Positions 1,380-63,855 of a DNA stretch of 64,000 nt are shown here, piece after piece; position 1 is the stretch's first letter, and the number at the start of each line of letters is the position of its first letter. Source of the stretch: Minisyncoccota bacterium (lineage in GTDB: Bacteria; Patescibacteriota; Minisyncoccia; Phycocordibacterales; GWA1-40-21); contig JBAZRH010000001.1 in NCBI GenBank assembly GCA_041663045.1, positions 276,403 through 340,402 on the forward strand, written 5' to 3'. The notes beneath the pieces are model-generated. The model searched no databases. It had not been told where the DNA came from and saw only the letters and a program-made list of their open reading frames with translations. The position numbers were made by a program, and so were the translations under genes.

Positions 1380-1404
1380 TGCTACTGTGCCATCCGGTGA
1401 ACGA

Positions 1405-1572
1405 AAACTTGCCTAAAATTTTTGCTAGGGGTGGCAACCTGTTCTTTTTGAAAAGACTTGGGAGGAGTGGCTGACGACGGACAGAGAAAAACTTTAGCAA
1501 AAGTTTTTCGTGCTTTTCAAAAAGAATAGGTTGACAGGACCCCGAGAAAATTTTAGGCAAGTCCGAGTGAGC
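1405..1572. repeat. Long imperfect palindromic intergenic repeat, family C copy 3
   Basis: Outer arms ttgcctaaaattt / aaattttaggcaa and inner arms aacctgttctttttgaaaag / cttttcaaaaagaa. It is about 70% identical to the 25030-25207 element and ends in the motif gtccgagtgagc. Confidence 0.7.
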
Positions 1573-3939: not shown

Positions 3940-4974
3940 TTATTTTACTACCTCGTATTTTCCGTCTTTATTTTTCTTGAAATACTTCTTATTCTGCAGA
4001 TTGATAACTATCGTATTTTCCTTGACATATCTCTCTTTCAAAACTTTCTCTATAATCTCCTGCTTTGTAAGAGGGCCGCTTTTCTCCAGAATCTTCTTAA
4101 TAACATCTTTGACAACACCGCTCATATAACCCCATTCTGCAAGAGCATATAAACCTCTGCCTACAAGTACAAATCTAGGGTCTTTAATAAGTTCATTGTG
4201 AGTTGTGGCGACATGGGCTTTCTTATTAAATACTGTTGCTATGGCTTTTGCTACTTCTCTAAAGTGTATTGGTGAACCATGTTTCCTAATGACAAGATAT
4301 GCATAGTCTCTCATACCCTTTGTGCTAATATTTGGAGATTCTGATCTACCCCATTCACCCAAAGGGTTTTTTCCAACCTTCTTTGAAAGGGCAAGCCATC
4401 TTTTCGCGATTTCTTCTGATCTATATTGTTCAGCAACATCTTCCACATAACCCAAGAAAGATTTTATCATTTCTTGTTCTGTAACAAGTTCATTATCTTT
4501 CAAACTTTCATACAACTTCTTTAGAGAGTTGTGAATTTTATCTGCAAGTTGTTCGTCAATAAACCACCTGTGTTTAAAATCTTCGTCTTCCTTAATCTTC
4601 TTAAACGGATGTCCAACAACAAGAATAAAGTTCAAGTGGCTTTGAGTGCTTAGATCTTTCGAAACAAAATCGAGAAGATCTTGCTCCACAACTATTCCAC
4701 CGAGGTTATGAATAATCTTCTCTATTTCATCAAATGATGGTTTTTCGTCAGTATAGTTTTTAGATTTTCTTATGATGTTTAGAGCGTGATTTTCTATTTG
4801 TCTCACCCTTTCTCTTGTAATACCATAGGTCTTACCTATTGCATCTAGAGTCATCGGCTCAGGATTTTTCCCGAGACCATATCTCTTTGTAATAACGTCT
4901 CTTGATCTCTCTGGAAGAGCCAAAAGCAACTTCTTAGAAACCTGTTTCGGTTTAAAACTTATTGTTGTTGACAT
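3940..4974 (-). CDS. Sigma-70 region-4-like HTH protein with a C-terminal HARE-HTH-like winged helix
   Basis: RYGLGKNPEPMTLDAIGKTYGITRERVRQIENHAL is a region 4 HTH. The C-terminus (GSPIHFREVAKAI...YALAEWGY) resembles a HARE-HTH domain. The start is more likely the internal Met at 4974 than 5031. Confidence 0.6.
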   Translation of the reverse strand: MSTTISFKPKQVSKKLLLALPERSRDVITKRYGLGKNPEPMTLDAIGKTYGITRERVRQIENHALNIIRKSKNYTDEKPSFDEIEKIIHNLGGIVVEQDLLDFVSKDLSTQSHLNFILVVGHPFKKIKEDEDFKHRWFIDEQLADKIHNSLKKLYESLKDNELVTEQEMIKSFLGYVEDVAEQYRSEEIAKRWLALSKKVGKNPLGEWGRSESPNISTKGMRDYAYLVIRKHGSPIHFREVAKAIATVFNKKAHVATTHNELIKDPRFVLVGRGLYALAEWGYMSGVVKDVIKKILEKSGPLTKQEIIEKVLKERYVKENTIVINLQNKKYFKKNKDGKYEVVK

Positions 4975-5064: not shown

Positions 5065-7935
5065 TTAAATTACAAAGTTGATTATTTTGTTTTTTACGAA
5101 GATAGTCTTCAGTATTTTCTGACCGGAGAGCCACTTGACTATATCTTGATTTGCTAATGCCTCCTTTCTAACATCTTCTTCGGAAACATCGCTTGACATG
5201 GGAAGCGTTGCTCGGACTTTACCATTTATTTGTACTACTATTTTCACTTTTGCTGATTTTATTTTGGCTTCATCATATTTTGGCCAAGGTTCCACTGCAA
5301 GAAGCTTTTTATTGCCAAGATTAGCCCATACTTCCTCGCACAAGTGCGGAGCAAATGGCGAAAGGATTTTGATAAAAGCCAGATAAGTTTCCTCATCAAT
5401 TTTTTCTTGAGCCTCTAAATGGTTTACAAATATCATCATCGCGGACACGGCGGTATTTGCATTAAACGATTCTATATCTTCCGTAACTTTTTTAATTGTC
5501 TTGTGTAAGAGTGATTGGGTGTCATTTGAATCAATAGTCTTGTCTGAGATTTTCTCCTGTAATTTCCAAACTCTTTCCAAAAATCTTCTTGAACCCACCA
5601 TACTATCTGTACTCCAAGAAATTTCCTGCTCAAAAGGCCCCATGAAGGATTCATAGATTCTCAAAGTATCGGCACCGACATTTTTCACTACTTCATCCGG
5701 ATTTACAACATTGCCATATCTCTTACCCATTTTCCTACCATCGGAACCAAGTATCATACCTTGATTGCGAAGCTGTTTGAAAGGTTCTTTTGTACTTACA
5801 ATACCGATATCATAAAGGAATTTATGCCAGAAACGAGCGTAGATAAGATGTCTTGTAGCATGCTCGGCCCCTCCAACATACATATCCACTGGAGACCAGT
5901 ATTTCTCTTTTTTGGGATCAATCAAAGCTTTACTATTCTTCGTATCCATATATCGGAGATAATACCAAGATGATCCTGCCCATTGAGGCATTGTATTTGT
6001 TTCCCTTTTCGCTTTTTCTCCGCATTTCGGACATTTTGTATTTACCCATTTTGAAATAGCAGCGAGAGGCGATTCTCCTGTGCCTGTCGGTTCATATGAC
6101 TTAACTTTTGGAAGCTTGAGTGGCAAATCTTTTTCTGGGACAGGGACAGCTCCGCATTTCTCACAATGCACCACGGGGATAGGCTCGCCCCAATATCTCT
6201 GTCTTGAGAAAACCCAATCTTGAAGTTTATAATTTTTCGTCATCTTTCCACCGGCAAATTCGGTAATCTCTTTCATTATTTCGGTATTTTTTTTGCCGTC
6301 AAATTTTCCAGAGTTTATCATCACGCCGTCATTTGTATAGGCTATATCTCCCTTTTCTAATCTCTCTAGCCAAATATCCATTTCTGCATGATTCAAAGTG
6401 CCGATAACTATATCTTTCACATTCATCCAAATCACTTCATGCTTTTCCTTCTCTTCCTCGGACATCTCATCTCTCTCTTCGTCTTTCAAATCAAAGCAAA
6501 TGGCGTTTGTATATGCAATTCTGTTTTCATCTTTATGCGCTGCAAAATATTCTGCACGGACTTGTCCACCCAAGACTTTTGGATTGACAAGGTTTTTATA
6601 ACCAGTCTCTTCCCAAGCCTCTCTTCTTGCTGCATCTATAATATTTTCACCTTCATCTACTCCTCCCATTGGAAAAGTCGTCCATGGTTGCTTTTTCCAT
6701 TTCAAGCAAATGATCTTACCGTCTTTAGGATTGCGAATAATTACATGCACGTTTCTCCTTTCAACACTTTTCTTTCCTGCGACTGGTGGATTTCTCTTAT
6801 CAATTCTCTCTGGGATAATCACCTCTTTTATCGGTAAATTATATTTCTTGGCAAAAGCAAAATCGCGGTCGTCGTGTGCGGGCACTGCCATCACGCAACC
6901 TGTACCATAGTTGGCTAAAACATAGTCTGCAATAAATACCGGCACTTTTTCGCCGTTGACTGGATTAATAGCTAATATTCCGCCGAGCTTCACGCCGGTC
7001 TTTTCTTTACCTTCGGCAGTTCTGTCTATTTCACTTTTATTTTTTATTTCTTTTCTGTATTTTTCTACTTCAGCCCAATTTGATATGTGAGATTTATATT
7101 CGTCTACTATCTTATGCTCTGGGGCAATGACGACATAAGATAAGCCAAATAAAGTGTCCGGTCTTGTTGTGAATACCTTTATTTCTCCGATCTCTTTCTT
7201 AAATCTTGAATCATGAATCTTGAATCCTATCTCTGAGCCTTCCGAACGCCCTATCCAATTCTTCTGAAGCTCTTTGATATGCGTAGGCCAATTCAGTGCA
7301 TCAAGATCGTCCAAAAGTCTATCGGCATAATCACGGATTTTGAGCACCCATTGTCGCATCGGTTTTTTTTCTATTGTCGTCCCGCATCTTTCACATTTAT
7401 CACCGTCCAGATCTTCATTTGCCAAACCGGTCTTACAAGATGGGCACCAATTTATCGGCTCATAACTTTCATAAGCCAAACCTTTTTTGAAAAGCTGTAA
7501 GAAAATCCATTGCGTCCATTTATAATACTTTGGATCAGTGGTATTTATCTCGCGAGACCAATCGTAATTCAAACCCATTATTGAAATCTGTTCTTTAAAT
7601 CTTTTTACATTTTTCTTTACGGCAATTTCGGGATTGATTTTCATCTTCATCGCGTACTGCTCCGCAGGCAAGCCAAAAGCGTCCCAGCCCATAGGGTGAA
7701 GCACATTAAAACCGTTCATCTTTTTGAATCTTGAGTAAATATCGGTAGCTATATATCCGCGAGGATGCCCAACATGAAGCCCTTCGCCAGATGGATATGG
7801 GAACATATCCAATACATAGAATTTCGGTTTATTCGAAGTATCTTCCGTCTTAAAGGTCTTTTTGTTTGCCCAAATTTTCTGCCATTTCTTTTCAATTTCT
7901 GAATGATTATAAATGTTTACCTTTTTTGATTTCAT
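5065..7935 (-). CDS. leuS: Leucyl-tRNA synthetase carrying an inserted Nudix hydrolase domain
   Basis: HVGH motif, TRPDT editing-domain motif, WVFSRQRYWG and a KMGKR (KMSKS-like) motif identify LeuRS. A roughly 140 aa insert (residues about 389-530) carries a perfect Nudix box, GGVDEGENIIDAARREAWEETGY. Confidence 0.9.
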   Translation of the reverse strand: MKSKKVNIYNHSEIEKKWQKIWANKKTFKTEDTSNKPKFYVLDMFPYPSGEGLHVGHPRGYIATDIYSRFKKMNGFNVLHPMGWDAFGLPAEQYAMKMKINPEIAVKKNVKRFKEQISIMGLNYDWSREINTTDPKYYKWTQWIFLQLFKKGLAYESYEPINWCPSCKTGLANEDLDGDKCERCGTTIEKKPMRQWVLKIRDYADRLLDDLDALNWPTHIKELQKNWIGRSEGSEIGFKIHDSRFKKEIGEIKVFTTRPDTLFGLSYVVIAPEHKIVDEYKSHISNWAEVEKYRKEIKNKSEIDRTAEGKEKTGVKLGGILAINPVNGEKVPVFIADYVLANYGTGCVMAVPAHDDRDFAFAKKYNLPIKEVIIPERIDKRNPPVAGKKSVERRNVHVIIRNPKDGKIICLKWKKQPWTTFPMGGVDEGENIIDAARREAWEETGYKNLVNPKVLGGQVRAEYFAAHKDENRIAYTNAICFDLKDEERDEMSEEEKEKHEVIWMNVKDIVIGTLNHAEMDIWLERLEKGDIAYTNDGVMINSGKFDGKKNTEIMKEITEFAGGKMTKNYKLQDWVFSRQRYWGEPIPVVHCEKCGAVPVPEKDLPLKLPKVKSYEPTGTGESPLAAISKWVNTKCPKCGEKAKRETNTMPQWAGSSWYYLRYMDTKNSKALIDPKKEKYWSPVDMYVGGAEHATRHLIYARFWHKFLYDIGIVSTKEPFKQLRNQGMILGSDGRKMGKRYGNVVNPDEVVKNVGADTLRIYESFMGPFEQEISWSTDSMVGSRRFLERVWKLQEKISDKTIDSNDTQSLLHKTIKKVTEDIESFNANTAVSAMMIFVNHLEAQEKIDEETYLAFIKILSPFAPHLCEEVWANLGNKKLLAVEPWPKYDEAKIKSAKVKIVVQINGKVRATLPMSSDVSEEDVRKEALANQDIVKWLSGQKILKTIFVKNKIINFVI

Positions 7936-9947: not shown

Positions 9948-10070
9948 AAGCTCCCTCCCATCACTATTTTCCACCAGTGTGCCTTCATCCCGAAGAAAAT
10001 CATAATCGCTGTTCTATACGAAAAATCCCAGAGTCGCTCCCGCACCTCCCGCCCGTGAGGTTTTTCTGTT
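9948..10070. repeat. Intergenic repeat, family B copy 1
   Basis: Shares ccattttc(c/t)caccagtgtgccttca...gaaaatcat..tcgctgttctatacgaaaaatc with 42128-42320 and, inverted, 53500-53645. Confidence 0.75.
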
Positions 10071-10681: not shown

Positions 10682-10797
10682 AATATTAAATTGTTTAAAC
10701 TAAAATCTCGAACCCTGAATTTACCTTCTTACAGAAGCCGTATACCTATTCTGTTTTATATTTCGCTTCACTCATATAAAACCATCATAGGTCTTTC

Positions 10798-10950
10798 ATT
10801 TGGGTCCCTTGCCCAAATTTCAACCTCTCGAAGGCCGTGTCCTAGTCACAAGTCAAAGTCTGCTGACTTTGCTTGCGACCCCCTCTCGTGCCGTCGCACT
10901 CCGATCTTGCGGTTGGGTCCCACCCCAACCTCACGTTAGACGATGAGGCC
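10798..10950 (-). pseudogene. Degenerate tRNA-Glu-like pseudogene with a roughly 93 nt insertion in the D-loop
   Basis: The reverse complement begins GGCCTCATCGTCTAACG and ends TAGGACACGGCCTTCGAGAGGTTG, homologous to the tRNA-Glu 5' half and anticodon arm. The T-arm and acceptor 3' half are replaced by a tttgggtccc...gggacccaaa hairpin that also occurs inside the repeat at 63645-63735. Confidence 0.55.
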
Positions 10951-24929: not shown

Positions 24930-25029
24930 TAAACACGTTTGTAAGCGACCGAAGCCCCGCCATTTTCTCACCATTGCCGAAAGCTCCCTCCACCCACTTT
25001 CTCTACGATCTAGCGGACTCTGTAAGTTA

Positions 25030-26307: not shown

Positions 26308-26486
26308 AAAAAGTTGAGGATTTGTAATTTGTTGTGTCCGCAGGCTCCTTTTCTGGTGCGATGTGGTGTAATTTTGCGAGAAGTAATCTTTGAGCAAAAG
26401 TATACCACATCGCAAGCCGCCGAGGATTAGGAAATTTTTCGGCTGGGAAAAATTTCTGCACAACAAATTGTAAATCCTCAACCTTG
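26308..26486. repeat. Long near-perfect palindromic repeat, family A copy 1
   Basis: aaagttgaggatttgtaatttgttgtgtccgcagg...ggtgcgatgtggtgtaattttgcgagaagtaatctttgagcaaaagtataccacatcgcaagcc...ctgcacaacaaattgtaaatcctcaacc. Confidence 0.8.
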
Positions 26487-30008: not shown

Positions 30009-31514
30009 ATGAAAAACAAGCTATCAGAAATCGGCAAGCTCATCACCGAGCTTCGTGAGAGACGCGGTATCACACAATCGGCTTTTGCTGAAAAGCTTGG
30101 CACAACACAAAGCGTAATCGCCCGCATAGAAAGCGGTGAGCAAAATCTAACCACAGAAATGCTTGAGAAAATCGGCGAAGCGCTAAATAAAGAAATCTTT
30201 ACAATATCGAAAGGTGCGATGAATCTTGAAATAGAAGGCGGACACAAACTCTCCGGCTCGGTGATTACAAAAACATCCAAAAACGGTGCGATGGGTATTA
30301 TCTCCGCTTCCCTACTAAACAAAGGTAAAACACTTTTAAAAAATGTGCCAAAAATTGAGGAAGTTTACAGAATGGTAGAAATCTTGGAAAGCATCGGTGT
30401 ATCTATCAGGTGGATTGGAGATGATCTGGAAATCGAGGTCAAGAAAATTGATCTCAAAAAGATAAATAAAGAATCCGCCGAGAAAACCAGAAGTATTATT
30501 ATGCTCATCGGCTCACTTTCACACTTTTTCAAGAAGTTTTCCCTACCACAATCCGGCGGATGCAAGCTCGGCTCGAGGACTGTCACCCCGCATTTTTTCG
30601 CCCTTGAGAATTTCGGTGTAAATATAGTCGCGAAATCAAAAAGTTATGAAATTTCGGCAAGTAAACTTAAGCCCGCAGAATTCGCCCTTTATGAAAGTGG
30701 AGATACCGTCACGGAAAACGCCATAATGACCGCCGCCCTTATCCCAGGGAAATCCGTCATCAAATTCGCCTCCGCCAATTATATGGTGCAAGATCTGTGC
30801 TTTTTCTTGGAAGGGCTTGGTGTAAAAATAGAAGGTATCGGTACGACCACCCTCACTGTGCATGGCGTATCGGAAATAAATAAAAATATTACATACTACC
30901 TCGCCGAAGATCCGATCGACTCAATGTTTTTCATAGCCACAGCAATACTCACAAATTCCTCTATAAAAATAGAACGCTGCCCGATAGATTTTCTTGAAAT
31001 AGAATTGCTAAAACTCAAAAAGATGGGCTTTAAATATAAATTATCAAAAGTCTATAAAGCACTGAACGGTAAGACGAATCTTGTAGACATCACCACTTCC
31101 CCTTCCCGACTCACAGCACTTACCGATAAAATAGAAGCGAGGCCCTTTCCTGGGCTCAATATCGACAACCTGCCTTTCTTCGCAGTCATCGCCACACAAG
31201 CCGTCGGGCAAACTCTCATACACGATTGGGTTTATGAAAAAAGAGCGATTCACTACAAGGAGCTAGACAAGCTCGGTGCCGATACTATTCTCGCCGACCC
31301 GCATAGATTTTATGTAAATGGAAAGACAGATTTGCGACCGACAGAAATAATCTGCCCGCCAGCTCTCCGCCCCGCCGCGATTATTTTGATAGGAATGCTT
31401 GGTGCAAAAGGCAGATCGATTTTGCGAAATGTTTACAGCATAAATCGCGGATATGAAGACATTGTGAAGAGGCTGAATGGTTTGGGAGCGAAGATAAAGA
31501 TGTTGAGGGATTAG
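30009..31514 (+). CDS. murA: XRE-family HTH domain fused to UDP-GlcNAc 1-carboxyvinyltransferase (MurA)
   Basis: The N-terminal 65 aa are an XRE HTH (LRERRGITQSAFAEKLGTTQSVIARIESGEQNLT). The remainder is MurA, with GGHKLSGSVITKTSKNGAMGII, catalytic Cys in GGCKLGSRTVTPH, and C-terminal INRGYEDIVKRLNGLGAKI. Confidence 0.8.
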   Translation: MKNKLSEIGKLITELRERRGITQSAFAEKLGTTQSVIARIESGEQNLTTEMLEKIGEALNKEIFTISKGAMNLEIEGGHKLSGSVITKTSKNGAMGIISASLLNKGKTLLKNVPKIEEVYRMVEILESIGVSIRWIGDDLEIEVKKIDLKKINKESAEKTRSIIMLIGSLSHFFKKFSLPQSGGCKLGSRTVTPHFFALENFGVNIVAKSKSYEISASKLKPAEFALYESGDTVTENAIMTAALIPGKSVIKFASANYMVQDLCFFLEGLGVKIEGIGTTTLTVHGVSEINKNITYYLAEDPIDSMFFIATAILTNSSIKIERCPIDFLEIELLKLKKMGFKYKLSKVYKALNGKTNLVDITTSPSRLTALTDKIEARPFPGLNIDNLPFFAVIATQAVGQTLIHDWVYEKRAIHYKELDKLGADTILADPHRFYVNGKTDLRPTEIICPPALRPAAIILIGMLGAKGRSILRNVYSINRGYEDIVKRLNGLGAKIKMLRD

Positions 31515-49223: not shown

Positions 49224-49520
49224 TTACAGACCAAATGTTCCCATTACTAGGTTTATTATTCCTTTCACCGAAAGCATAATAAACATCCCTATTACCCCAT
49301 AAAGCATATGCATTCCGCCCTCTGCTCTTTTTTCTGCACTTTCTGCATTCTTTACGAATCCATATACTCCGTAAAGAAAAACTACAAGTGCCCAAATAAA
49401 CAACAAATATATCGCTGGATTTAGTATTTCAGCTTTGATCTTTGAAAACATTGAGTCAAAACTGGTACCTTCACCAGACATCACATTTGCCGCATAGACT
49501 TTGGTGAACAGAAAATTCAT
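49224..49520 (-). CDS. VirB2/TrbC-pilin-like double-TM mini-protein, paralog 5
   Basis: Two hydrophobic helices separated by the charged loop KNAESAEKRAEGG. Shares the YGVYGFVK and MLYGVIGMFIMLSVKGIINLV signatures with the four upstream paralogs. Confidence 0.55.
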   Translation of the reverse strand: MNFLFTKVYAANVMSGEGTSFDSMFSKIKAEILNPAIYLLFIWALVVFLYGVYGFVKNAESAEKRAEGGMHMLYGVIGMFIMLSVKGIINLVMGTFGL

Positions 49521-49526
49521 TTATTG

Positions 49527-49895
49527 TTAGTAGGTTATAGGTACAATATTTTGAATGCCCGCATCTAATGCACTGGCGCCACGTGTGTTGAAAGTTGATT
49601 GCAAGATATTTACCAATCCCCAGACAGAAACCATGACAAAGATACCAACTATACCATAGATAATCTGTGTCTTTGCAGTTTTCTTTTTGTCTTCATCTCC
49701 AGCAATAGTGTACTGAAAAACCTCCCAAATAAAATAAACAACGGCGATTGCTATAAATAGCGGAACAAGCATAGACAATATTCTAGCTGCCCAAACGATT
49801 AAGCCACTCAATCCCTGACCTGTTGTATATGTTACCTGAGCCAAAGCCATAACTGGCAAAGCAAATGTAACTCCGACTGCTAATACTTTTTTCAT
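49527..49895 (-). CDS. VirB2/TrbC-pilin-like double-TM mini-protein, paralog 4
   Basis: Sec signal peptide (MKKVLAVGVTFALPVMALA), TM1, loop AGDEDKKKTAKTQ, and TM2 IIYGIVGIFVMVSVWGLVNILQSTF. Confidence 0.55.
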   Translation of the reverse strand: MKKVLAVGVTFALPVMALAQVTYTTGQGLSGLIVWAARILSMLVPLFIAIAVVYFIWEVFQYTIAGDEDKKKTAKTQIIYGIVGIFVMVSVWGLVNILQSTFNTRGASALDAGIQNIVPITY

Positions 49896-49995
49896 AATTA
49901 AACTAATTAATAAACTAATAATTCCTAAAAATGACGACCATTTTTAATTAACACTATAATTATAAACCAATCCAGTAAATAGGCAAATGGGTTAT

Positions 49996-50397
49996 CTACA
50001 GCTTTGGGATATTGATATCCGAATTACCAAGCTTAAATGTGTTTTGCAATACCGATACCAATCCCCAGACAGAGACCATGACAAAGATACCAATAATGCC
50101 CCAAAGGATAAACTCCCTACCTGATTGTTTGTCATCACCTTCAGCCCTAATAAACTTAAATACTCCATAAAGAAATACAACAACAGCAAGGGCGACCAAT
50201 AGATATACAACGGGTTTTAATATTCCACCGATAATTATATTATTAATTAATTCTTTAAAATTATGCGGACTAGAAACAGAAGACGTGCCGGCAGCAAAAG
50301 TAGCTGTACTAGAGAGAAAAAGCACTCCCAACACTACCGAAGACAATATATGACTTATCAATTTGGTTTTATTTTTCATCTTATTATTTTGCCACAT
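49996..50397 (-). CDS. VirB2/TrbC-pilin-like double-TM mini-protein, paralog 3
   Basis: Signal peptide, TM1 VFLYGVFKFIRAEGDDKQ, and TM2 ILWGIIGIFVMVSVWGLVSVLQNTF. An alternative start lies at 50379. Confidence 0.55.
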   Translation of the reverse strand: MWQNNKMKNKTKLISHILSSVVLGVLFLSSTATFAAGTSSVSSPHNFKELINNIIIGGILKPVVYLLVALAVVVFLYGVFKFIRAEGDDKQSGREFILWGIIGIFVMVSVWGLVSVLQNTFKLGNSDINIPKL

Positions 50398-50725
50398 TAT
50401 TAATTGTACCAGTAACTATATTTGCTATAAGTTGTGAACCGAGCAAGATAACAATACCAATAATCGTCCATTTAAATGTATCCTTTGCTTTTGTTATCTC
50501 CCCAGGATTACCGCGAGCATCTACAAATAGATATCCAGCATATATTAAAAACATAATACAAATTACAGAACCAATCTCTATTACTACATTTAGGAAACTT
50601 TTTACAGTTCCAATTAAACTATCACTTTTAAGTGGGTTTGTGATTGTTTGACCGTGGGAAATTAATGGTATCAACAAAAGTGAGAAGAGAAAGATCGATG
50701 TGAGATTTATTAAAATTTTTTTCAT
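50384..50725 (-). CDS. VirB2/TrbC-pilin-like double-TM mini-protein, paralog 2
   Basis: Signal peptide, TM1 MFLIYAGYLFVDARGNPGE, and TM2 WTIIGIVILLGSQLIANIV. Confidence 0.5.
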   Translation of the reverse strand: MKKILINLTSIFLFSLLLIPLISHGQTITNPLKSDSLIGTVKSFLNVVIEIGSVICIMFLIYAGYLFVDARGNPGEITKAKDTFKWTIIGIVILLGSQLIANIVTGTINNVAK

Positions 50726-50751
50726 ATGATTATTCTAATTAATATATTATT

Positions 50752-51171
50752 TTATTTCAAGAATTTCAAATAAAGTGAGCTATCCTTGGTCAACCCCTTT
50801 ACTATAGCATATACGATAACCCAGGCACACAACAAAAAGAACAGTCCATAAACACTCTTTTTAAACATTGCCAGAGCTCTTTCCCTTTCTCCAGAATTGT
50901 TTGGATTCAACAAAATTCTCCCCCCTGCAATCGCAAAAGTAACAGTAGCAATAGTCGCAGAAATGCCGATAACCCACTTTATAAAGTTGTCTATCATACT
51001 AACAAAAGCATCAAAATCACATGGGCACTCTGGACTACCATCACATCCGATTATTCCTCCTAACATAACACATTCTATTGGTACAGATTTCGAAGCCGCC
51101 AAGGAGATGGCTGGTACAACAAATATTACTATCGCCAATACACAAAATAGAACTTTCAAATTAAATTTCAT
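50752..51171 (-). CDS. VirB2/TrbC-pilin-like double-TM mini-protein, paralog 1 (Cys-rich N-terminal region)
   Basis: Signal peptide, a CxxxxxxxCxxxxxCxC segment, then TM1, the loop NPNNSGERERA, and TM2. Confidence 0.5.
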   Translation of the reverse strand: MKFNLKVLFCVLAIVIFVVPAISLAASKSVPIECVMLGGIIGCDGSPECPCDFDAFVSMIDNFIKWVIGISATIATVTFAIAGGRILLNPNNSGERERALAMFKKSVYGLFFLLCAWVIVYAIVKGLTKDSSLYLKFLK

Positions 51172-52478: not shown

Positions 52479-53003
52479 TTATTTTCTAAAGATTATTCCG
52501 TAATGATTTGCACCTGCGGAGATTTCTCTATCAATTACAAAGCCATGTTTTTTAAAAAGTTCTAATGCCCTTTCTTTTGATAGGACATCTTTGGATTGTG
52601 GACCAATACCACCAAAAGAACTAAGCCAGTCTATAAGAAGAATCCTACCGCCCTTTTTGAGAATTCTTCTGGTCTCCAGAATAACATTATCTTTTTGCTC
52701 AAGTTGGAAAAGAATATTCGCCATTATTGCTGAATCTATAGAAGACTCGCGGAGTTTTGTACCGCCCAAGTGTTCCAAGTCTGCCCAAACAATATCTATA
52801 TTTTTAAGATGCCTAAGATTAGCTTCTTTTTTGAGTTTTTGAAGAAGATCTTTTTGAACGTCCACAGCATAAACTCTGCCGTTTTCTCCTACAGCTTCAG
52901 CTGCAGCAAAAGAATAATACCCTGCGCCGGAACCAAGGTCGGCAACATAAGTACCCTTCCCCAAACTAAATTGTCCTATATTTTTTTCAGGATCGGAAAA
53001 CAT
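52479..53003 (-). CDS. Class I SAM-dependent methyltransferase
   Basis: Motif I VADLGSGAGYYS, the acidic-loop residue in VYAVDV, and motif IV IDWL. Confidence 0.7.
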   Translation of the reverse strand: MFSDPEKNIGQFSLGKGTYVADLGSGAGYYSFAAAEAVGENGRVYAVDVQKDLLQKLKKEANLRHLKNIDIVWADLEHLGGTKLRESSIDSAIMANILFQLEQKDNVILETRRILKKGGRILLIDWLSSFGGIGPQSKDVLSKERALELFKKHGFVIDREISAGANHYGIIFRK

Positions 53004-53149
53004 GATTGATTTTTAAGGAGTGAAATGACTATAAAAATCATCACCCTGCGAAATGGAGTTTGCTTTGGCAAACGACATATTTCACTGGGGTCTATTTCAC
53101 TTGGTTAATTATATCATAATAAAATACTGACAAGTAGGGCGGGTGTGGA

Positions 53150-53312
53150 GAAAAAGCTCATTCACATCCCCGCTTTTCTGTGCAGAAATTTTCCCCAGCC
53201 GGAAAATTTCCTAATCCTCGGCGGCTTGCGCTGTGGTATACTTTTACTCGAAGATTACTTCTCGCAAAATTACACCACATCGCACCAGAAAAGGAGCCTA
53301 CGGACACAGAAA
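53150..53312. repeat. Family A repeat copy 3 (inverted orientation)
   Basis: Reverse complement of the 26308-26486 and 61520-61757 cores: ctgtgcagaaattttccccagccggaaaatttcctaatcctcggcggcttgcgctgtggtatactttt...ctcgcaaaattacaccacatcgcacc...ggacacag. Confidence 0.8.
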
Positions 53313-53499
53313 AATGGGGACGTTCATTCGCTTACAGCAGAAAAATACGGCTTTGTAAAGCCATACTTCATAAGCGAGCGAGATTCTCAATTTTCTAGCA
53401 TTGCCGAGAACCCGTGATAGAAGCAGTGTTCACTCTTATATTAGCTTCCTCGGCTCGGAAATGAAAAAGGAATTTTCATTTCTCTCGCTCTACGTCGCT

Positions 53500-53645
53500 A
53501 ATAAATCAAGGAGATGTTTAGAAAAATCAAGTTGTTTGAGACACATTCTGATGTGGCGAGTTCTTGATTTTTCGTTAAGAACATCGACTATGATTTGACT
53601 CTGGTGAAGGCACACTGCTAGAAAATTGAGAATCGAGCGAGCGTT
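53500..53645. repeat. Family B repeat copy 3 (inverted orientation)
   Basis: gagacacattctgatgtggcgagttcttgatttttcg is the reverse complement of the 42190-42230 segment. Ends with gaatcgagcgagcg. Confidence 0.8.
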
Positions 53646-56116
53646 TAAATCAAGGTTACCGACGCAATACTATCCCCTTCTCTTAATTTCATAACTCTCA
53701 CACCCTGCGTCTGCCTACCGAGCGAAGGAATTTCTTTGACCGCCACGCGTATGACCTGACTCTTTTTTGAAATAGTTGCGATTTCGTCTTCGCCGTCTGT
53801 GACGACTTTTGCGGAAATAATCTCCCCCGTTTTTGGTGTAACTTTCATGGTCTTGATACCAGACCCGCCTCTCTTTTGCACTTTATATTCTTTGAGTGGA
53901 GTTTTCTTTCCATAACCGTTTGAGCTCACCACGAGAAGCTCCGGATTCTGCATTGTTTTTGAAATAATGGCTGTACCGACGACAGTATCCCCTTTTCCAA
54001 GCTTTACACCACGGACACCAGAAGCATTCCTGCCCATAACGCGAATATCTTTATCTTTGAATCTGATAGATTGCCCTTTCGATGTGGCGATTATCGCCTC
54101 GTCGCCGTCATTCATAAAGAGCGCCGACTGAAGCTCATCTCCTGCATCTAGAGTGATGGCTATCAAGCCGTTTCTACGAACGTCTTTGAAGTTTTCTGCA
54201 TCCACCCTCTTTGCCGTACCGTTTTTCGTCACAAAGATAAGTGAGAGTTTCAAATTCTTCATCGCCTTTGGCATAGCAAGGACAGAAGTGATTTTCTCCT
54301 CACCAGAAATCGCCAAGTAGTTTACAATCGCCTTGCCTTTTGTCGCTCTCTTACCTTCTGGCAATTCATACATTTTTATTTGATACGCCTTTCCTTTGTC
54401 TGTGAAGAAGAGAATATCATTGTGTGTAGAAGCAGTAATAAAATGAGTAATAAAATCTTCATCTTTTGTATCAAGGTCCACCACTCCCACCCCACCCCTC
54501 TTCTGCTTTCTGTATTCGTCTGGGTTTGTCCTCTTTACATATCCGCCAGCAGTAAGGACGAGCATACTTTCTTCGTCTGCTATCAAATCTTCATCTGAAA
54601 GTGTCTGTACTCCGCCTTTTATAACTTTTGTCCTTCTCTCATCGCCGTATTTGGCTTTGATTTCAAGAAGCTCGGACTTAACTATTTCGAGAATTCTCTT
54701 TGTCTTTGCCAAAATATCTTTCAAATCTTTTATAAGGGCCTGCACGGCAGAAAGCTCATCTTCGATTTTCTTTCTCTCAAGTCCGGCGAGCTTCTGCAAA
54801 CGCATTTCAAGAATGGCATTGGCTTGGATTTCCGAAAACTTAAATACTTTCATGAGCTGTGCACGAGCGTCATCTACGTCTTTTGATTTCTTTATAAGTT
54901 TGATGATTTCGTCTATATGATCAAGCGCCTTTTTCAAACCAAGCAAAATATGCTCTCTCGCCTCGGCCTTTTTCAAATCAAATTCTGTCCTCCTTTTTAC
55001 GACAATCTTTCTATGATCTATGAATTCTTCCAGGAAAGAAAGGAGTGAAAGTGTCTTCGGTACGCCGTCTACAAGAGCGACAAGGTTGAAGTGAAATGTC
55101 TCCTCGAGCTGTGTATGTTTATACAAATAATTCAAAACGCTTTGTGGCTGAGCGCCATTTTTGAGGTCAACGACAATACGGATGTCTTTTGCAGACTCAT
55201 CACGCAAACCCCTTATACCTTCTATTTTCTTTTCACGGACAAGCTCGGCGATAGCGATGATAAGCTCGGCTTTGTTGACCCTATAAGGTATCGAGGTGAT
55301 TATTATCTGAAATTGACCTTTTTTGTCTTCTACTATTTCGGCATGACCTCTCGTCACCACCCCTCCTCTACCTGTGGAATATGCGTGGTTGATATCTGTT
55401 TGATTGTAAATCATCCCGCCTGTCGGAAAATCTGGCCCTTTTATAAATTTCAAAAGGTCTTCAGTGGTAGCATCTTCATTGTCTGCCAAGTGAATAGTTG
55501 CATCGATCACCTCTCCAAGGTTGTGCGGGGGGATATTCGTCGCCATACCGACAGCAATACCGAGAGTTCCGTTTAACAAAAGGTTCGGCACACCGGCTGG
55601 AAGGACGGTTGGTTCTTTTTTGGTATTGTCATAGTTGGGCTTCCAATCAACGGTTTCTTTTTCCAAATCTTTCAGCATTTCACCGGCGATTTTTGACATC
55701 TTCGCCTCGGTGTATCTCATAGCGGCGGCTGAATCGCCGTCTATGTTTCCAAAGTTTCCCTGACCGATAATATGCGGATATCTAAGTGAGAAATCCTGTG
55801 CCATTTTGACCATAGAATCATAGACAGCAACATCGCCGTGCGGGTGATAATTTCCAAGTACTTCTCCGACCACAGCGGAAGATTTCCTTGTCCTTGCACC
55901 TGCGGTAAGGTTCATTTGGCCCATGGCATAAAGGATTCTTCTATGCACTGGTTTCAAACCATCGCGGACATCGGGAAGGGCGCGGTCTGTGATGACAGAC
56001 ATGGCATAGTCGATAAATGACTCTTTCATTTCGGTCGTAATGCTTCTGTCGGAAAGAGCTCTATGCTCTATTTTTACAGCTTCCTCTCCATTTCCTTCTG
56101 ATTTGTTTTTCGCCAT
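53645..56116 (-). CDS. gyrA: DNA gyrase subunit A
   Basis: [14 protein letters not shown], the active-site Tyr region, and C-terminal beta-pinwheel repeats. Confidence 0.9.
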
Positions 56117-56118
56117 GA

Positions 56119-56346
56119 CTATTTATTAAAAATTTCTACAAAATTATCTTTCAATTCTTTCATCTGTCCTGAATCAAATATTGATTTTCTAATTTCTGGA
56201 CTATCAACAATGTTAATCAAATTATTTAAGACAAGTGCAAATATTACCACAATCAAAGTGATAACGACAGCGCTTGTAAAGGCAAAAACTCTCTTTTTTC
56301 TTTCTGGCATTTTCTCTATCTTTGAAAGAAAAGACATAATTTTCAC
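56119..56346 (-). CDS. Small single-TM protein
   Basis: 75 aa with one TM helix, immediately upstream of gyrA. Confidence 0.4.
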
Positions 56347-56985
56347 TTACAAATTTGCAGAAAGAACCACCACCTCGCCCTGTTTGCCATCCAAATCCTT
56401 CTTCTTGATTGTCAGCTTGTCTATCGGTTTTACATTTTCTTCACCCGCTGCTTTCAGATATTTCTTCAAACCATCTTTTTGTCCGACATCCCCATAATGC
56501 ATCGGTATGATTATCTTCGGCTCGATTTCCACAGAAAGCTTTTCTGCTTTCACTGCATCAAGTACACCGTCGTCGCCCACGGGCAAGAAGAGAATATCGA
56601 CATCACCAAGTGCTTCTTTGACTTCGCTTGAAAGATTGATATCGGAAAGCGTGCCAAGGAAACAAAGATTCATATTTTCAAGAGTGACGGAATAAATAGT
56701 GTTGATGCGTTCTTTGCCGGCATAAGAAGATTTCGAACCAAAACCTTTTATGAAAATTTCTTTGACTTCGTATTCGCCCGGACCGGAAATGACAAAAGGG
56801 TCCTTGCCATTGTAAGAGAGGTTTTCTGTGCCATTCATATCCGGGTGATTGACGCTCACAAGTGCAATATCAGCAAAAAAACGTGTCGGCTTAAACTTTG
56901 ATTCTTTTGAAATCGGATTAAAAGCGAGGGTTGTGTCGCCAAACTGAACTTTAAAAAATTCCACCCCTTGATAAGTGATAATCAT
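56347..56985 (-). CDS. MBL-fold metallo-hydrolase-like protein (degenerate His motif)
   Basis: UPF0173-like beta-lactamase fold. LVSVNHPDMNG replaces the canonical HxHxDH. Confidence 0.55.
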   Translation of the reverse strand: MIITYQGVEFFKVQFGDTTLAFNPISKESKFKPTRFFADIALVSVNHPDMNGTENLSYNGKDPFVISGPGEYEVKEIFIKGFGSKSSYAGKERINTIYSVTLENMNLCFLGTLSDINLSSEVKEALGDVDILFLPVGDDGVLDAVKAEKLSVEIEPKIIIPMHYGDVGQKDGLKKYLKAAGEENVKPIDKLTIKKKDLDGKQGEVVVLSANL

Positions 56986-57019
56986 GGGTTAATTATAGCA
57001 AATTCCGACCGATTCGGCA

Positions 57020-57255
57020 ATACAAAAAAAGCTCCCTCGCATTTCCTTTTTGGTGCACACGTCAAATTTCCCTGCGAGGAATTTGCGCTCCCTCTCGGCC
57101 TCTCTCGTCCGCCTGATTACAGGCGAACGCCATGCCCGCTCGGCCTGCGAGAGTCACCAAAAAAGAAAACGCTCGGTCGCTAACATAAAAAAATCCCAAC
57201 AAAAAACCACACGAGTGGAGGAAACTTTTCCTCTCAACTCGCGTGGTATCACTCG
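57020..57255 (-). ncRNA. Candidate GC-rich structured small RNA or 3'-UTR element between two intrinsic terminators
   Basis: On the minus strand, a hairpin ccacacgagtggagg...cctctcaactcgcgtgg plus TTTTTTG comes first. A roughly 170 nt GC-rich segment follows, with the stems ctctcgcaggccgag/ctcggcctctctcg and cgcctgattacaggcg. It ends with cctcgca...tgcgagg plus TTTTTTT. Confidence 0.3.
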
Positions 57256-57274
57256 CCAACCCTGACTCACCCAC

Positions 57275-57706
57275 TTACTTGAGCAGAATCGCTGTGCAGA
57301 CGAAGTGTTCGCCTTCACTGCCATCGATTTCAACCGAATCCGTGAGGGTTTCGACGGCTTTCGTCTGCTTTTTGTCATCATCACTCATCTGGTCGAATAC
57401 TTCCCCAATGTCTGGCTTGAGGAAGAAGCGAGAAGACGATTTGACAAGAAAACGAATTCGTTTGAACTCCTTTAAACCATCGACGAGTTCGTCGGGCTTG
57501 AAGTCGAACGTGTGCGATATACCCCGAGGGTTCTTGCGGATTTTTTCCATCGTATCTTTGTCTGCCGTATAGTAGCCCACAACACTTCCTTTCCCTTTGT
57601 GGGTTTCAGACACGATGAGAATTCTGCTAAGTAACTCGCGAATCTCATCAGATGACGTCCTTTTGTAGTTGCTGTACAGAACTTTCGTATCTATTTTATT
57701 TCCCAT
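57275..57706 (-). CDS. Hypothetical protein (143 aa), higher GC
   Basis: ORF with a downstream terminator. No motif recognised. Confidence 0.5.
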   Translation of the reverse strand: MGNKIDTKVLYSNYKRTSSDEIRELLSRILIVSETHKGKGSVVGYYTADKDTMEKIRKNPRGISHTFDFKPDELVDGLKEFKRIRFLVKSSSRFFLKPDIGEVFDQMSDDDKKQTKAVETLTDSVEIDGSEGEHFVCTAILLK

Positions 57707-58059
57707 GATTATTCTCCTTCTTCTTGATTTTATTACTGGTATTTACCAGTGTGGACTTCCGTTTGAGATGTTAGCATAGTTTAAACTTTTTGTCAAGCAT
57801 TTACTTTCCCATATCTTCGTGTATTATTCTTTCTGTTAATAGCAGTCGTGCAAAGAGATAACCTCGATCATCGGAAAATTCAAGATTACGGAAGATGAAC
57901 GAAACTTTTTGAGCGAACAATTTATTTGTCCGCTAGTGAGCGGATTTTCTTGTCCCGAGTGAAAATCAACGGATTAGAAGAAAAAATAAAATAACCGATT
58001 GAAAATTAAATAGAATTTAAAACAGGTCTCTATTTTTAAATTTTCTTTTCGGGATTATT

Positions 58060-59181
58060 ATGGCAAAAGAAATAAAGAAAGTTGCGATTGCAGATGTAGA
58101 GATTTCTGCCGAAGCAAAAGCAAAGAAAGATAGTTTGATGGGTAAGCTTTTCAATGATGTCAAAAATCCTCCATCGGAAGGAGAAGTCGTGGAAGGTAAA
58201 GTTATCGGAGTTGAAAAGTCTAGAGTTTATGTTGACCTACAACCATTTGGTTCAGGTCTTATTTATGGTAAGGAATTCATCACCGCAAGAGATGTTATCA
58301 AGAAGCTTAATATCGGCGACATCGTCTCCGCAAAAATAGTAGACGTAAATGGAAGAGACGGTTATATAGAGCTTTCTTTGAAAGAAGCTCGCCAGGCCCT
58401 TATCTGGGATGAAGCCGAAAAAGCTATCAAGAGCAAAATCGTATTTGAAATTCCGGTCAAGGAAGCCAACAAAGGCGGACTTATGCTTGAATGGCAAGGT
58501 ATTACAGGATTCTTACCAGCATCACAGCTCAAAGCCGAACACTATCCAAAAATAGTAGACGGGGACAAAGACAAAATTCTTGATGAATTGAAAAAACTCG
58601 TCGGGCAGAAGATTTCTGTCGCGATAATTACTGCCACTCCAAAAGAAGGCAAACTTATTTTCTCCGAGAAAAACATTGAAAAGAAAGAAAAGCAGAAAAT
58701 GGCCGACAAATACAAAGTCGGAGATATTCTGGATGGAGAGATTACCGGCACGGTAGACTTCGGTGTCTTCGTGAAGCTTGAAGATGGTCTAGAAGGACTT
58801 GTGCATATTTCAGAAATCGACTGGGCGCTTGTAGATGATCCAAGAGCAATGTTTAAACAGGGAGATAAAGTCAAAGTAAAAGTTATAGATGTGAAAGACG
58901 GAAAAGTTTCGCTTTCTATCAAAGCTTTGAAGACAAACCCTTGGGTTGAGGCGGAGAAGAAATATAAAAAGGGCGATATGGTGGAAGCTGTTGTCATCAA
59001 ATTCAACAAATATGGCGCACTTGCAAGTATTGAAGAGGGTGTCGCTGGACTTGTGCATATTTCAGATTTCGGTTCAGAAAATAAAATGAAAGAAAAGATT
59101 AGCTTGGGTAAAAACTACACGTTCAAGATAAATCTCTTTGAAGCAAAGGGACAGAAGATGGGGTTGAGTTTTGTTAAATAA
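58060..59181 (+). CDS. rpsA: 30S ribosomal protein S1 (four S1 domains)
   Basis: Repeated S1 OB-fold signatures (GxV.G.V..I...G.FV). Confidence 0.85.
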   Translation: MAKEIKKVAIADVEISAEAKAKKDSLMGKLFNDVKNPPSEGEVVEGKVIGVEKSRVYVDLQPFGSGLIYGKEFITARDVIKKLNIGDIVSAKIVDVNGRDGYIELSLKEARQALIWDEAEKAIKSKIVFEIPVKEANKGGLMLEWQGITGFLPASQLKAEHYPKIVDGDKDKILDELKKLVGQKISVAIITATPKEGKLIFSEKNIEKKEKQKMADKYKVGDILDGEITGTVDFGVFVKLEDGLEGLVHISEIDWALVDDPRAMFKQGDKVKVKVIDVKDGKVSLSIKALKTNPWVEAEKKYKKGDMVEAVVIKFNKYGALASIEEGVAGLVHISDFGSENKMKEKISLGKNYTFKINLFEAKGQKMGLSFVK

Positions 59182-59307
59182 AAGCTCGCTCGGATATCCA
59201 ATTTTGAGACCCGCATTCCGCCATGGGCGGATGATCCCTCTCCCGCCGTCGCGGTCCGTAACTCTCAAAATTAAATATCCTCGCTCGTTTACTTGCAGAC
59301 AAATTCA

Positions 59308-59340
59308 CAGAGGGGGTTCGCTTTGCGAACCCCCTCTTTG
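59308..59340 (+). terminator. Rho-independent terminator after rpsA
   Basis: cagagggggttcg-cttt-gcgaaccccctcttt. Confidence 0.75.
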
Positions 59341-59379
59341 GATTACGGAGGTCGAACCTCCGTAAAACATTTTCTGCAT

Positions 59380-59414
59380 AAAAAAGCGGCGCTGAGCATA
59401 CAGCGCCGCTTACC
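59380..59414 (-). terminator. Terminator for the minus-strand gene at 59430-60143
   Basis: On the minus strand, ggtaagcggcgctgtatgctcagcgccgc is followed by TTTTTTAT. Confidence 0.75.
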
Positions 59415-59429
59415 AAAATCAAGATAGCT

Positions 59430-60143
59430 TCAAGTTTGGATTTCCTTGGCCAAGAAACGCCACGTCTTACAGTGATTCTCTTTCATCCAAAGCTCCGATA
59501 TATTGTCAGAACAATGAATTGTGCGTTTGTTAACACAGAATCCGACTTGACCTATAGGGGTGGTCCCGTCCTGTTCAGTGCTTACTTCCTCTCTCTTGAA
59601 ACTAAGTGCCGCCCTATCCCACTCACCAGTTTCTGGATTAGCAGTAAGTGCTTTGATAGACATTCTATCCACCAATTCTGGGTATCTTCTGATAAATCCC
59701 AATACTTCGACGGGAGTTAGGAATGCTAGATTATTCTCATCGATATATAGGACTACATCCCCGTAAGACATAACCTGATCTTCTGGTGGAAAAATCTTGT
59801 AGACAACCTCTTCGATAACACAGTCGTCACTAGGACTATCCCCCTTAAGTTCCCCTAAGAGCTTATTCTGATTTATGCCAGGATGCACAAAGCCACGTAC
59901 TTTTTTCAATTCTCCGACAAGGAAGTCGGGTGTATCGCAGTGATTTATATCCACTATGTATACACCATCTCCGAATGGATTCGGATCACCTCGTAGGAAA
60001 CGTTTGAAAGCGTTCCCCCAGAAGCGAGCATTTTTGTTACCACTCAACCTTTCGAGAAGGTCAATGATCACACCGAAAAAGTTTTCCGGTAGACCACCAA
60101 GCATCTCAACTATCTTACCGAGCATGTCAGATTTTTTAGACAT
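59430..60143 (-). CDS. Hypothetical protein (237 aa), higher GC
   Basis: Long ORF with its own terminator. No motif recognised. Confidence 0.5.
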   Translation of the reverse strand: MSKKSDMLGKIVEMLGGLPENFFGVIIDLLERLSGNKNARFWGNAFKRFLRGDPNPFGDGVYIVDINHCDTPDFLVGELKKVRGFVHPGINQNKLLGELKGDSPSDDCVIEEVVYKIFPPEDQVMSYGDVVLYIDENNLAFLTPVEVLGFIRRYPELVDRMSIKALTANPETGEWDRAALSFKREEVSTEQDGTTPIGQVGFCVNKRTIHCSDNISELWMKENHCKTWRFLAKEIQT

Positions 60144-60254
60144 GGTCAGCTCCTTTTCTTTTTTACAGAACTTACCGAGTAATCAGCCCTTCTCCGCACA
60201 CGCGAATCAGAGATGATTTCCTTTGTATTTCTATCACTTTGTATACAAAAGTCA

Positions 60255-60297
60255 AATGGGCGGGGTTTGCCTTCGGCAAACCCCGCCCATTTTGTAT
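60255..60297. terminator. Bidirectional terminator
   Basis: aaatgggcggggtttgccttcggcaaaccccgcccatttt. Confidence 0.8.
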
Positions 60298-60301
60298 TTC
60301 A

Positions 60302-60898: not shown

Positions 60899-61145
60899 AC
60901 TAATAGTGTAATGCTAAAGACTGAAAAAGTAAAATACTAAAAATTAGTCCGAAAATATAGCTAAAGATAGACTTACTTTGTCGCCCCCAAACTGCTTGAC
61001 AATAAGGACAGATGGGTGTATACTACTAAACAGGAGTATTGGGGTGTAAATGGCTTGTCGCTGTTCATCTTTGATACAAATGATATTTGAAAACGGGTAT
61101 CGCTACCCTTTGGCTAAAAAGCCGTTAGTGAATTTGGAGGAAAAA

Positions 61146-61448: not shown

Positions 61449-61460
61449 GTAAATCGGTTT

Positions 61461-61498: not shown

Positions 61499-61519
61499 AT
61501 TTCCATTTTCTACTCCCTA

Positions 61520-61757
61520 TTCGTAAGCGAGCGAGACTTGTGATTTTTGAGCATTACATGCTTTAATCTATTTCATGAGCGAGCGAGTATTCCGATTTTG
61601 TTGTGTCCGCAGGCGAGCTTGCATGGTGCGATGTGGTGTAATTTTGCGAGAAGTAATCTTCGAGCAAAAGTATACCACATCGCAAGCCGCCGAGGATTAG
61701 GAAATTTTTCGGCTGGGGAAAATTTCTGCACAACAAAATTGGGATACGAGCGAGCTA
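61520..61757. repeat. Family A repeat copy 2
   Basis: About 95% identical to the 26320-26475 core. Flanked by three CGAGCGAG motifs (61523, 61577, 61746). Confidence 0.8.
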
Positions 61758-62384: not shown

Positions 62385-62385
62385 T

Positions 62386-63582: not shown

Positions 63583-63855
63583 AAGCTCGCTCATATCACT
63601 ATTTTCCTGTGCAGAAATTTTCCCCAGCCGAAAAATTTCCTAACTCCTTACAGGAGCAGTACACCTTTCACATTTTGAGTACAAAACGTTCAAGGTCTTT
63701 TATTTGGGTCCCTTACCCAAATCTCAACTCGGCGGCTTGCGCTGTGGTATACTTTTGCTCGTGAATACACTTCGCAAAATTACACCACATCGCACCGCAC
63801 AAGCTCGCCTGCGGACACAGGAAAATAGTAATATTCGCTCGCTTATCGCTTGCAT
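63583..63855. repeat. Family A repeat copy 4 (inverted) interrupted by a roughly 90 bp insertion
   Basis: The arms match 53150-53312. The insertion (about 63645-63735) contains tttgggtcccttacccaaat, shared with the pseudo-tRNA region at 10798-10820. Confidence 0.75.

Follow-up and report, generated by a model that had tools for sequence, protein, structure and literature searches.

A 64-kb stretch of DNA (the window), taken from a 428,695-bp contig in a metagenome-assembled genome (MAG) of Candidatus Paceibacterota within the Candidate Phyla Radiation (CPR), contains about 14 related repeat elements of ~90-250 nt each, which together make up ~3-4% of its sequence. Their cores differ, while their ends follow one plan, in which two copies of a short purine hexamer pair with each other at the foot of a long hairpin. 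The elements are best described, with a probability of about 0.55, as a lineage-restricted superfamily of small, non-coding, non-autonomous mobile elements. Family A, a four-copy repeat picked out by a first-pass annotation of the window, is then one family among several. That these are mobile non-autonomous repeats is very probable from the comparison with related genomes. It is also rather probable that folding as a single strand matters for them, and candidates for the enzyme that moves them can be named more tentatively.

Family A: copies and fold

The four copies reported in the first-pass annotation (A1-A4; Table 1) were confirmed in three ways. A 29-nt core probe matched the window at 26355 (+), 53286 (-), 61625 (+) and 63796 (-), with 0 matches expected by shuffles; a repeat finder returned matches of 137-140 nt between copies at 91-98% identity; and a covariance model detected exactly four full-length copies, none of them missed by BLAST. 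The cores are 88-98% identical. Two copies lie on each strand and every one is intergenic, both as annotated, and the description of a dispersed, MITE-sized (miniature inverted-repeat transposable element), hairpin-forming repeat in a streamlined CPR genome is thereby supported. The copies measure 160-242 nt and contain no credible open reading frame (ORF). The third copy had been placed from 61520, which takes in a separate 54-bp mini-element (61529-61582), A3 proper starting at 61587. The length of A4 (242 nt) is due to an 85-nt internal insertion. A hairpin of this insertion, ATTTGGGTAAGGGACCCAAAT, recurs at 10789-10824 downstream of tRNA-Glu with 92% identity over 36 nt, and the insertion may represent another small repeat family nested inside Family A.

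Only two further copies were found anywhere, both in the uncultured MAG MJ130729B_bin-744 (bin-744) at loci sharing no genes with the window. In the window, Family A neighbours rseP/frr, a methyltransferase gene and gyrA, lepB, and hisS. These are single-copy housekeeping genes that are not duplicated, and the copies are therefore not segmental duplications, the alternative which the first-pass annotation had set against its own proposal. Assembly error, or duplication of palindrome-bearing blocks, could be suspected since the sequence comes from a MAG and the repeat interrupts short-read contigs; one of these from the same sample (L010, 1,935 bp, window 61703-63637) starts in A3, ends in A4 and has 57-nt inverted ends. 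However, the four copies differ in their flanks and arms, the flanks are single-copy genes, the bin-744 copies come from another study, and related families occur in an independently assembled relative. An artefact is effectively refuted by these bin-744 copies and by the families of that relative.

Folding and consensus folding give Family A a three-way junction, in which a closing stem of ~20 bp carries two hairpins of 27 and 11 bp. The element had been described as a near-perfect palindrome able to form a single hairpin longer than 60 bp. Neither description holds, since only the outer ~20-26 bp are inverted repeats and the interior folds as two separate hairpins. For A1, the minimum free energy of the RNA is -82.6 kcal/mol (z = -11 against shuffles).

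The covariation analysis used an alignment of the four window copies and the two bin-744 copies. The structure pairs 95.7% of the alignment cells and 12 pairs are changed on both sides, values reached in 0/500 shuffles; sliding the partners by 1-3 columns as a control lowers the pairing to 40-60%. Most of this signal belongs to the closing stem, where 10 of the 20 pairs are changed on both sides and 97.5% of the cells are paired. Its outer 8-9 bp vary from copy to copy in a compensated manner. The two internal hairpins are nearly invariant in sequence, with one compensated pair apiece. Thus, the arms are homologous and evolve fast under a pairing constraint, and the core is conserved as sequence. 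An earlier idea that the arms are unrelated and made anew at each insertion was dropped, as the alignment and the compensation show homologous, diverged arms.

A superfamily with a common base module

The motif GCGAGCGAG occurs all through the window in same-strand pairs 100-270 bp apart. The intervals between the paired motifs are elements with quite different cores and the same ends. The total of ~14 comprises the four Family A copies, X1415, X25030, X28771, B42122, X53374, X57032, X59185, X61527 and two fragments. The annotated density of about one copy per 16 kb covers Family A alone (four copies in 64 kb) and understates the number of related elements.

On the top strand, defined as the strand carrying GAGCGA, the common layout is (T)AAGC - GAGCGA - stem ... 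core ... stem' - GAGCGA - GCTT, followed by a T-run. The stem of ~20 bp has 8-9 variable outer nucleotides and then a T4-5 run on its 5' arm. The family-specific core sits inside the stem and consists of the two hairpins in Family A. GCGCGACGGCGCGAGC is common to three cores, and X53374 and B42122 have a common 127-nt core at 90% identity. In the tandem of X61527 and A3, the 3' hexamer of the former overlaps the 5' hexamer of the latter.

Members of the superfamily were also found in a relative with a syntenic 21-kb locus (L008; HisRS 88% identical) and in bin-744, where an X25030-type core is 94% identical over 80 nt. They were not found in 8 kb of a second relative (L011; RseP 85% identical) or in 21 kb of a third (L012; RseP 75% identical). 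A scan of viral contigs and blastn against phage and plasmid collections gave no relative of the elements. A 20-base junction pattern run against metagenomes gave four matches, all of them chance hits in high-GC coding sequence.

The key to the base module is that two GAGCGA hexamers placed antiparallel on one strand pair as G·A, A·G, G-C, C-G, G·A, A·G. Both DNA and RNA form stable tandem 5'-GA-3'/3'-AG-5' mismatches, and the hexamer GAGCGA is part of d(ATGAGCGAATA), a classic example of self-pairing. The central pairs are GC/GC in 12 elements, AT/AT in A2, CC/GG in X57032 and B42122, and AC/GT in X1415. The whole hexamer has become Watson-Crick paired in A1 (AGTTGA/TCAACC) and at the bin-744 locus L002 (GAGCCA/TGGCTC), and no variant breaks the central pair. 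Three to four outer pairs (AAGC/GCTT) extend the helix beyond the hexamers, and the minimum-energy folds include both the central GC pairs and these outer pairs. At the same positions, the complementary strand has pyrimidine-pyrimidine mismatches.

The hexamers of X57032, B42122 and X1415 differ between left and right and are nevertheless complementary; they are therefore not a target-site duplication. The absence of an obvious duplication, as annotated, stands in so far as there is no true duplication. It does not stand as regards the flanks, since three Family A copies have a hexamer (GAGCGA; GAATGA in A2) on both sides. The fourth, A1, lacks a direct repeat of any kind at the hexamer positions. 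The matching GAATGA/GAATGA of A2 was at first taken as proof of a 6-bp duplication. This interpretation was abandoned, as AT/AT is just another self-complementary centre. Judged from the predicted pairing, the GAGCGA direct repeats are part of the fold and not a duplication.

Of 18 exact GAGCGAG heptamers in the window, 13 mark element ends, and 0-1 were counted in L011 and L012. Being nearly confined to the element ends, the motif thus travels with the elements. The possibility that it is an independent host signal was rejected, since it is nearly absent from relatives without elements.

A further small module was seen in the relatives beside the GCGAGCGAG motif, at L008 9040-9075 and at L002 1655-1690 and 1970-2005. 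Its hairpin has a 7-bp stem and a 4-nt loop and precedes TGACAGAG; two of the L008 elements are followed by GCTTATGACAGAGC on the opposite strand. The TGACAGAG/GCTTATGACAGAGC module is absent from the window.

Occupied, empty and replaced sites in relatives

Orthologous intergenic regions were compared, a check proposed in the first-pass annotation, and both presence/absence and replacement were seen. Downstream of hisS, L008 reads CATAAGC-GAGCGA-GCCTTTA with one hexamer, and the window reads TAAGC-GAGCGA-(A4)-GAGCGA-GCTTTTA. A2 and X53374 are absent from the syntenic L008 site, which has an ordinary terminator. Plain terminators without an element were likewise found in L011 at the sites of A1 and X25030 and in L012 at the site of X28771. 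At the S1 gene, an element is present in both the window (X59185) and L008, with different arms and a partly different core. Upstream of lepB, the window has X61527 and A3, and L008 has a nested pair of other elements. Such empty sites, differently occupied sites and nested insertions mean that the elements have moved. Near-identical cores at unrelated loci, together with the nested and tandem arrangements, furthermore require copying.

The elements could be classical MITEs moved as double-stranded DNA, by cut-and-paste or by copying, through a DDE transposase encoded elsewhere, with a preferred target such as AAGC-N6-GCTT or TA and with the hexamers as a 6-bp duplication. Size, copy number and intergenic location fit this. 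So do the identical hexamers on both sides of most copies (including A2), the single-hexamer L008 site against the filled window site, and the symmetry of the AAGC...GCTT context, often with TA just outside both ends. Classical bacterial MITEs (Correia, ERIC, RUP, BOX, bcr1, Nezha) are likewise 100-250 bp long, intergenic, multi-copy, foldable and modular or mosaic, with a possible effect on the transcription of their neighbours. However, the terminal inverted repeats of classical MITEs are conserved in sequence and match a parent insertion sequence (IS), and their target duplication is fixed; neither feature is found here. The termini are conserved in pairing only. The hexamers are direct and not inverted in the duplex, leaving no true terminal inverted repeat at the tips, and duplication cannot yield the left/right-different, complementary hexamers of X57032, B42122 and X1415. 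No parent IS with matching ends was found in the window, viral contigs, phages or plasmids, and the strand asymmetry described below is not expected of a double-strand mechanism. A DDE-moved MITE is thus an improbable explanation.

Site-specific recombination cassettes would also account for part of the comparison. A cassette would be excised as a small circle, its joined ends (arm'-GAGCGA-arm) looking like the core site of a recombinase with inverted arms on either side of a 6-bp spacer, and integrated at AAGC-GAGCGA-GCTT through a folded strand similar to integron attC sites. The same hexamer is indeed present at both junctions and once at the solo site, a given site can hold different elements in two genomes, and one hexamer is common to the elements of a tandem array. 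Furthermore, attC sites are 60-140-nt imperfect palindromes in which structure counts over sequence, one strand is active and the interior is variable and sometimes branched; structure-conserved stems and strand asymmetry are found here too. However, the attC core sites R''/R' (RYYYAAC / GTTRRRY), gene cassettes flanked by elements and IntI were not found in the window, and the conserved module is a purine-purine motif. No integrase or recombinase was found in the window or near elements, and there is no evidence of circles. Left/right-different hexamers would block exchange that depends on spacer homology. Such cassettes are accordingly considered highly unlikely.

In some relatives (L012 9557-9901; a contig of ENA ERZ1426827), a gene of the 23S_rRNA_IVP family lies between frr and rseP, where the window has only A1.

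Position relative to genes and transcription signals

In eleven cases, an element points its T-run (3') side at the stop codon of a gene on the opposite strand, from a near-fixed distance. The genes are yceG, orf162, rseP, gyrA, relA (2 nt closer), ftsA, ftsZ, and S1 and hisS in both genomes each; the sense strand at these stop codons reads TAA-ARG-CTCGCTC. Elements co-directional with both neighbours (A2, A3 and X57032) are found at the boundaries of transcription units, upstream of promoters. A predicted top-strand hairpin running through the hexamers is followed by T4-7 in ~14/20 elements; this strand is usually antisense to the upstream gene. Hairpin and T-run together would form a polar, terminator-like structure, which could account for the orientation of the T-run side towards opposite-strand stop codons. 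The positions fit a polar hairpin tolerated only where no needed transcript is stopped. A target preference for TAAAAG would fit them as well.

In 52900-64000, promoter-like matches stayed at the level of shuffles (25 against 21 expected) and terminator-like matches exceeded it (20 against ~10 expected); neither tracks the elements.

The elements might instead be RNA structures used by the host as polar terminators, insulators or stabilisers of mRNA ends, spread by recombination or gene conversion and perhaps with a small RNA as core. Like intrinsic terminators, they show a predicted top-strand hairpin and T-run right after stop codons, in an orientation that spares co-directional genes from termination, and plain terminators take their place in the relatives. 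RNA helices typically contain G·U and G·A pairs, every locus shows compensatory evolution, and the Family A core is conserved between two genomes. Unlike intrinsic terminators, however, the hairpins are far larger, branched and mostly oriented against the upstream gene, and near-identical cores repeat at unrelated loci. Stems of 20-30 bp with 90-250-nt inserts far exceed what termination needs. At gathering thresholds, Rfam 15 found only RNase P and three tRNAs in the window and no Family A match, and a permissive scan of A3 gave only chance microRNA-like matches (E > 0.7). The elements are not accompanied by promoter signals, half of the Family A copies lie antisense to the genes on either side, a position in which transcription would not be expected, and the nested or tandem insertions and repeated cores need copying anyway. 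A host-used RNA is therefore regarded as quite unlikely to be the primary nature of the elements.

Strand asymmetry and the possible mobilising enzyme

The top strand folds better than the bottom strand in 16/17 elements, with an advantage of 14-33 kcal/mol in the window copies of Family A. Conserved G·U pairs are found in Family A at alignment columns 20/224, 52/87 and 196/223. When closing-stem imperfections are scored in a strand-symmetric way, G·T outnumbers A·C by 16 to 6 (p = 0.05). The G·A and G·U/T pairs are confined to the top strand, and the T-run of the 5' arm and that after the hairpin are always on the GAGCGA strand. Since the elements occur on both genomic strands, the asymmetry belongs to the element itself and does not stem from replication. 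The strand bias of folding, G·U pairs, imperfections and T-runs argues that the element is selected as a folded single strand, which is rather probable.

In the proposed mechanism, a folded single strand of the element would be recognised and either copied or excised. Recognition or cleavage would take place at the G·A hexamer module of the hairpin foot, with the family-specific core as cargo. Most likely, a Y1/HUH (RayT/IS200-like) enzyme would act in trans on single-stranded DNA (ssDNA). Peel-and-paste processing of this kind is favoured by a recognition that would depend on strand and structure, by termini not conserved in sequence, by a scarless empty site and by the abundance of such enzymes in the phylum. 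A Y1/HUH enzyme as the mobiliser is nevertheless no more than a possible and somewhat doubtful candidate.

A gene of this kind was seen in L008, where an IS200-like unit (4166-4910) contains a Y1/HUH gene (4201-4857; 218 aa; motifs NHFHLL and YIHLNP). The protein has >7,500 homologues, mostly in Patescibacteria and some named RayT. The gene is bracketed by TATCAAGGAAATTCCTTGATA palindromes, with a third copy inside the ORF. The IS200-like unit, inserted beside a hexamer-type element, has no counterpart at the syntenic window site 57004-57188. In the window, tblastn of this protein gave no match, and Pfam on ~60 ORFs showed housekeeping genes only, with no transposase, integrase or recombinase.

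IS200/IS605 elements move by peel-and-paste ssDNA transposition, with scarless excision and no true target duplication (PMC10055086). The present elements would resemble them in strand-specific, structure-dependent recognition and have one favoured (top) strand; their hexamers at the left and right ends may be comparable to the target-adjacent and transposon-encoded motifs (TAM/TEM), although the covariation of the two hexamers suggests that both belong to the element. The single-hexamer L008 site resembles a donor joint. However, the IS200/IS605 motifs are read by internal DNA guides, whereas here the motifs pair with each other.

Several observations weigh against the elements being mobile repeats processed as single strands. 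No mobilising enzyme was found, and the 64-kb window has no Y1 gene. The TATCAAGGAAATTCCTTGATA palindromes of the sole Y1 gene seen are absent from the window, and none of its top 120 homologues lies on the 428,695-bp contig. IS200/IS605 elements have two separate subterminal hairpins, whereas here the ends form one closing stem; their target motif is derived from the flank, whereas both hexamers here are apparently inherited together, as recurrent variants with unlike left and right hexamers suggest. IS608-type elements show a replication-linked orientation bias, and here the orientation is mixed over a few kb. Energy models generally favour G+U-rich strands, and the count of G·T against A·C is on its own borderline. 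The sequence is compatible with either DNA or RNA as the folded strand. The single-hexamer L008 site may be a slippage-deletion scar and not an empty target, and structural selection alone may have kept old, vertically inherited elements at orthologous sites.

Likeness to miniature mobile repeats

The elements resemble bacterial miniature mobile repeats of the MITE/REPIN type and are not a new kind of system. The end module of self-pairing G·A hexamers is unlike the repetitive extragenic palindromic (REP) sequence, which carries a 5' GTAG-type tetranucleotide. REPINs are likewise short, extragenic, long-hairpin repeats that are non-autonomous and thought to be handled as a single strand. REPIN termini are conserved around a variable middle, whereas here the outer stem is variable and the core conserved. 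No RAYT gene flanked by these elements was found in the window, and the Y1 gene of L008 has unrelated palindromes. The REPIN hairpin is kept by compensatory changes (PMC3116915), as is the hairpin of Family A in its closing stem.

A stronger formulation is that the elements form an undescribed class of structure-specified mobile hairpins. The members of such a class would have in common, as sequence, nothing but a self-pairing tandem-G·A hexamer module at the foot of a covarying stem, and would be mobilised as a single-stranded nucleic acid by an enzyme not yet linked to this module. They would at the same time act as polar terminators that settle directly behind stop codons in a reduced CPR genome, and their arms and cores would be exchanged separately. 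This formulation is unlikely as a whole.

Table 1. Coordinates of the superfamily elements, their parts and the stop codons that they face (window numbering unless stated)
Feature	Position	Strand	Remarks
A1 (Family A copy 1)	26312..26483; element proper 26318-26477	+	hexamer positions AGTTGA / TCAACC, Watson-Crick paired; between frr stop and rseP start, antisense to both
A2 (Family A copy 2)	53158..53329; element proper 53164-53323	-	variant hexamer GAATGA on both sides
A2 hexamers	53158-53163 and 53324-53329		plus-strand TCATTC
A3 (Family A copy 3, reference copy)	61581..61753; element proper 61587-61747	+	
A3 hexamers	5' 61581-61586; 3' 61748-61753		
A3 closing stem	5' arm 61587-61606; 3' arm 61728-61747		
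A3 internal hairpins	hairpin 1 (P2) 61624-61689; hairpin 2 (P3) 61700-61727		
A4 (Family A copy 4)	63587..63840; element proper 63593-63834	-	GAGCGA hexamers on both sides; T-run side adjoins hisS stop codon
A4 internal insertion	63644..63728	-	85 nt, between hairpin 1 and hairpin 2
X1415	1399..1570	+	core related to X25030; hexamers GAACGA / GAGTGA; T-run side adjoins yceG stop
B9936, partial member	9952..10060	-	3' hexamer GAGGGA and T-run, 3 nt past TAA stop
Fragment of B42122 family	24947..24995	+	5' hexamer GACCGA and left arm
X25030	25032..25203	+	different core containing GCGCGACGGCGCGAGC; GAGCGA hexamers; adjoins rseP stop
X28771	28773..28878	+	94-nt element, perfect 17-bp stem, GAGCGA hexamers
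B42122	42130..42316	-	core shared with X53374; hexamers GACCGA / GAGGGA; after relA/spoT stop
X53374	53376..53640	+	253-nt element, 22-bp stem, GAGCGA hexamers; adjoins gyrA stop
X57032	57033..57178	-	covarying hexamers GACCGA / GAGGGA
X59185	59186..59286	-	89-nt element, GAGCGA hexamers; adjoins S1 gene stop
X61527 mini-element	61529..61582	+	42 nt between two GAGCGA hexamers; tandem with A3
Stop codons facing elements, window	1575, 9947, 25208, 42127, 53645, 59181, 63582		
Stop codons facing elements, L008	7175, 11197, 14320, 16336		

Significance for reduced genomes

Few known genomes are as small and gene-dense as those of CPR/Patescibacteria, in which a literature search found no description of such miniature mobile repeats. 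With ~3-4% of a 64-kb housekeeping stretch belonging to one superfamily, reduced genomes can evidently carry active non-coding mobile DNA. The self-pairing, covarying purine hexamer provides a simple search pattern for such elements in other genomes, and the base module is a concrete substrate for testing the many RayT/IS200-like enzymes of the phylum. The fixed position after stop codons and the polar hairpin with its T-run suggest an effect on transcription boundaries. The repeats also break short-read assemblies of CPR genomes, as the L010 contig ends in A3 and A4 illustrate.

Other features of the window

In the leucyl-tRNA synthetase at 5065-7935 (-), the editing domain is followed by an inserted NUDIX hydrolase domain (residues 393-513). 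An enzyme of the EPSP-synthase fold (MurA-like) at 30009-31514 (+) has an N-terminal HTH_3 DNA-binding domain, and the same fusion is present in L012. At 49224-51171 (-), five tandem small genes of 98-139 aa all match T4SS_pilin, and the repeats D4 (49588/50033) lie inside this array.

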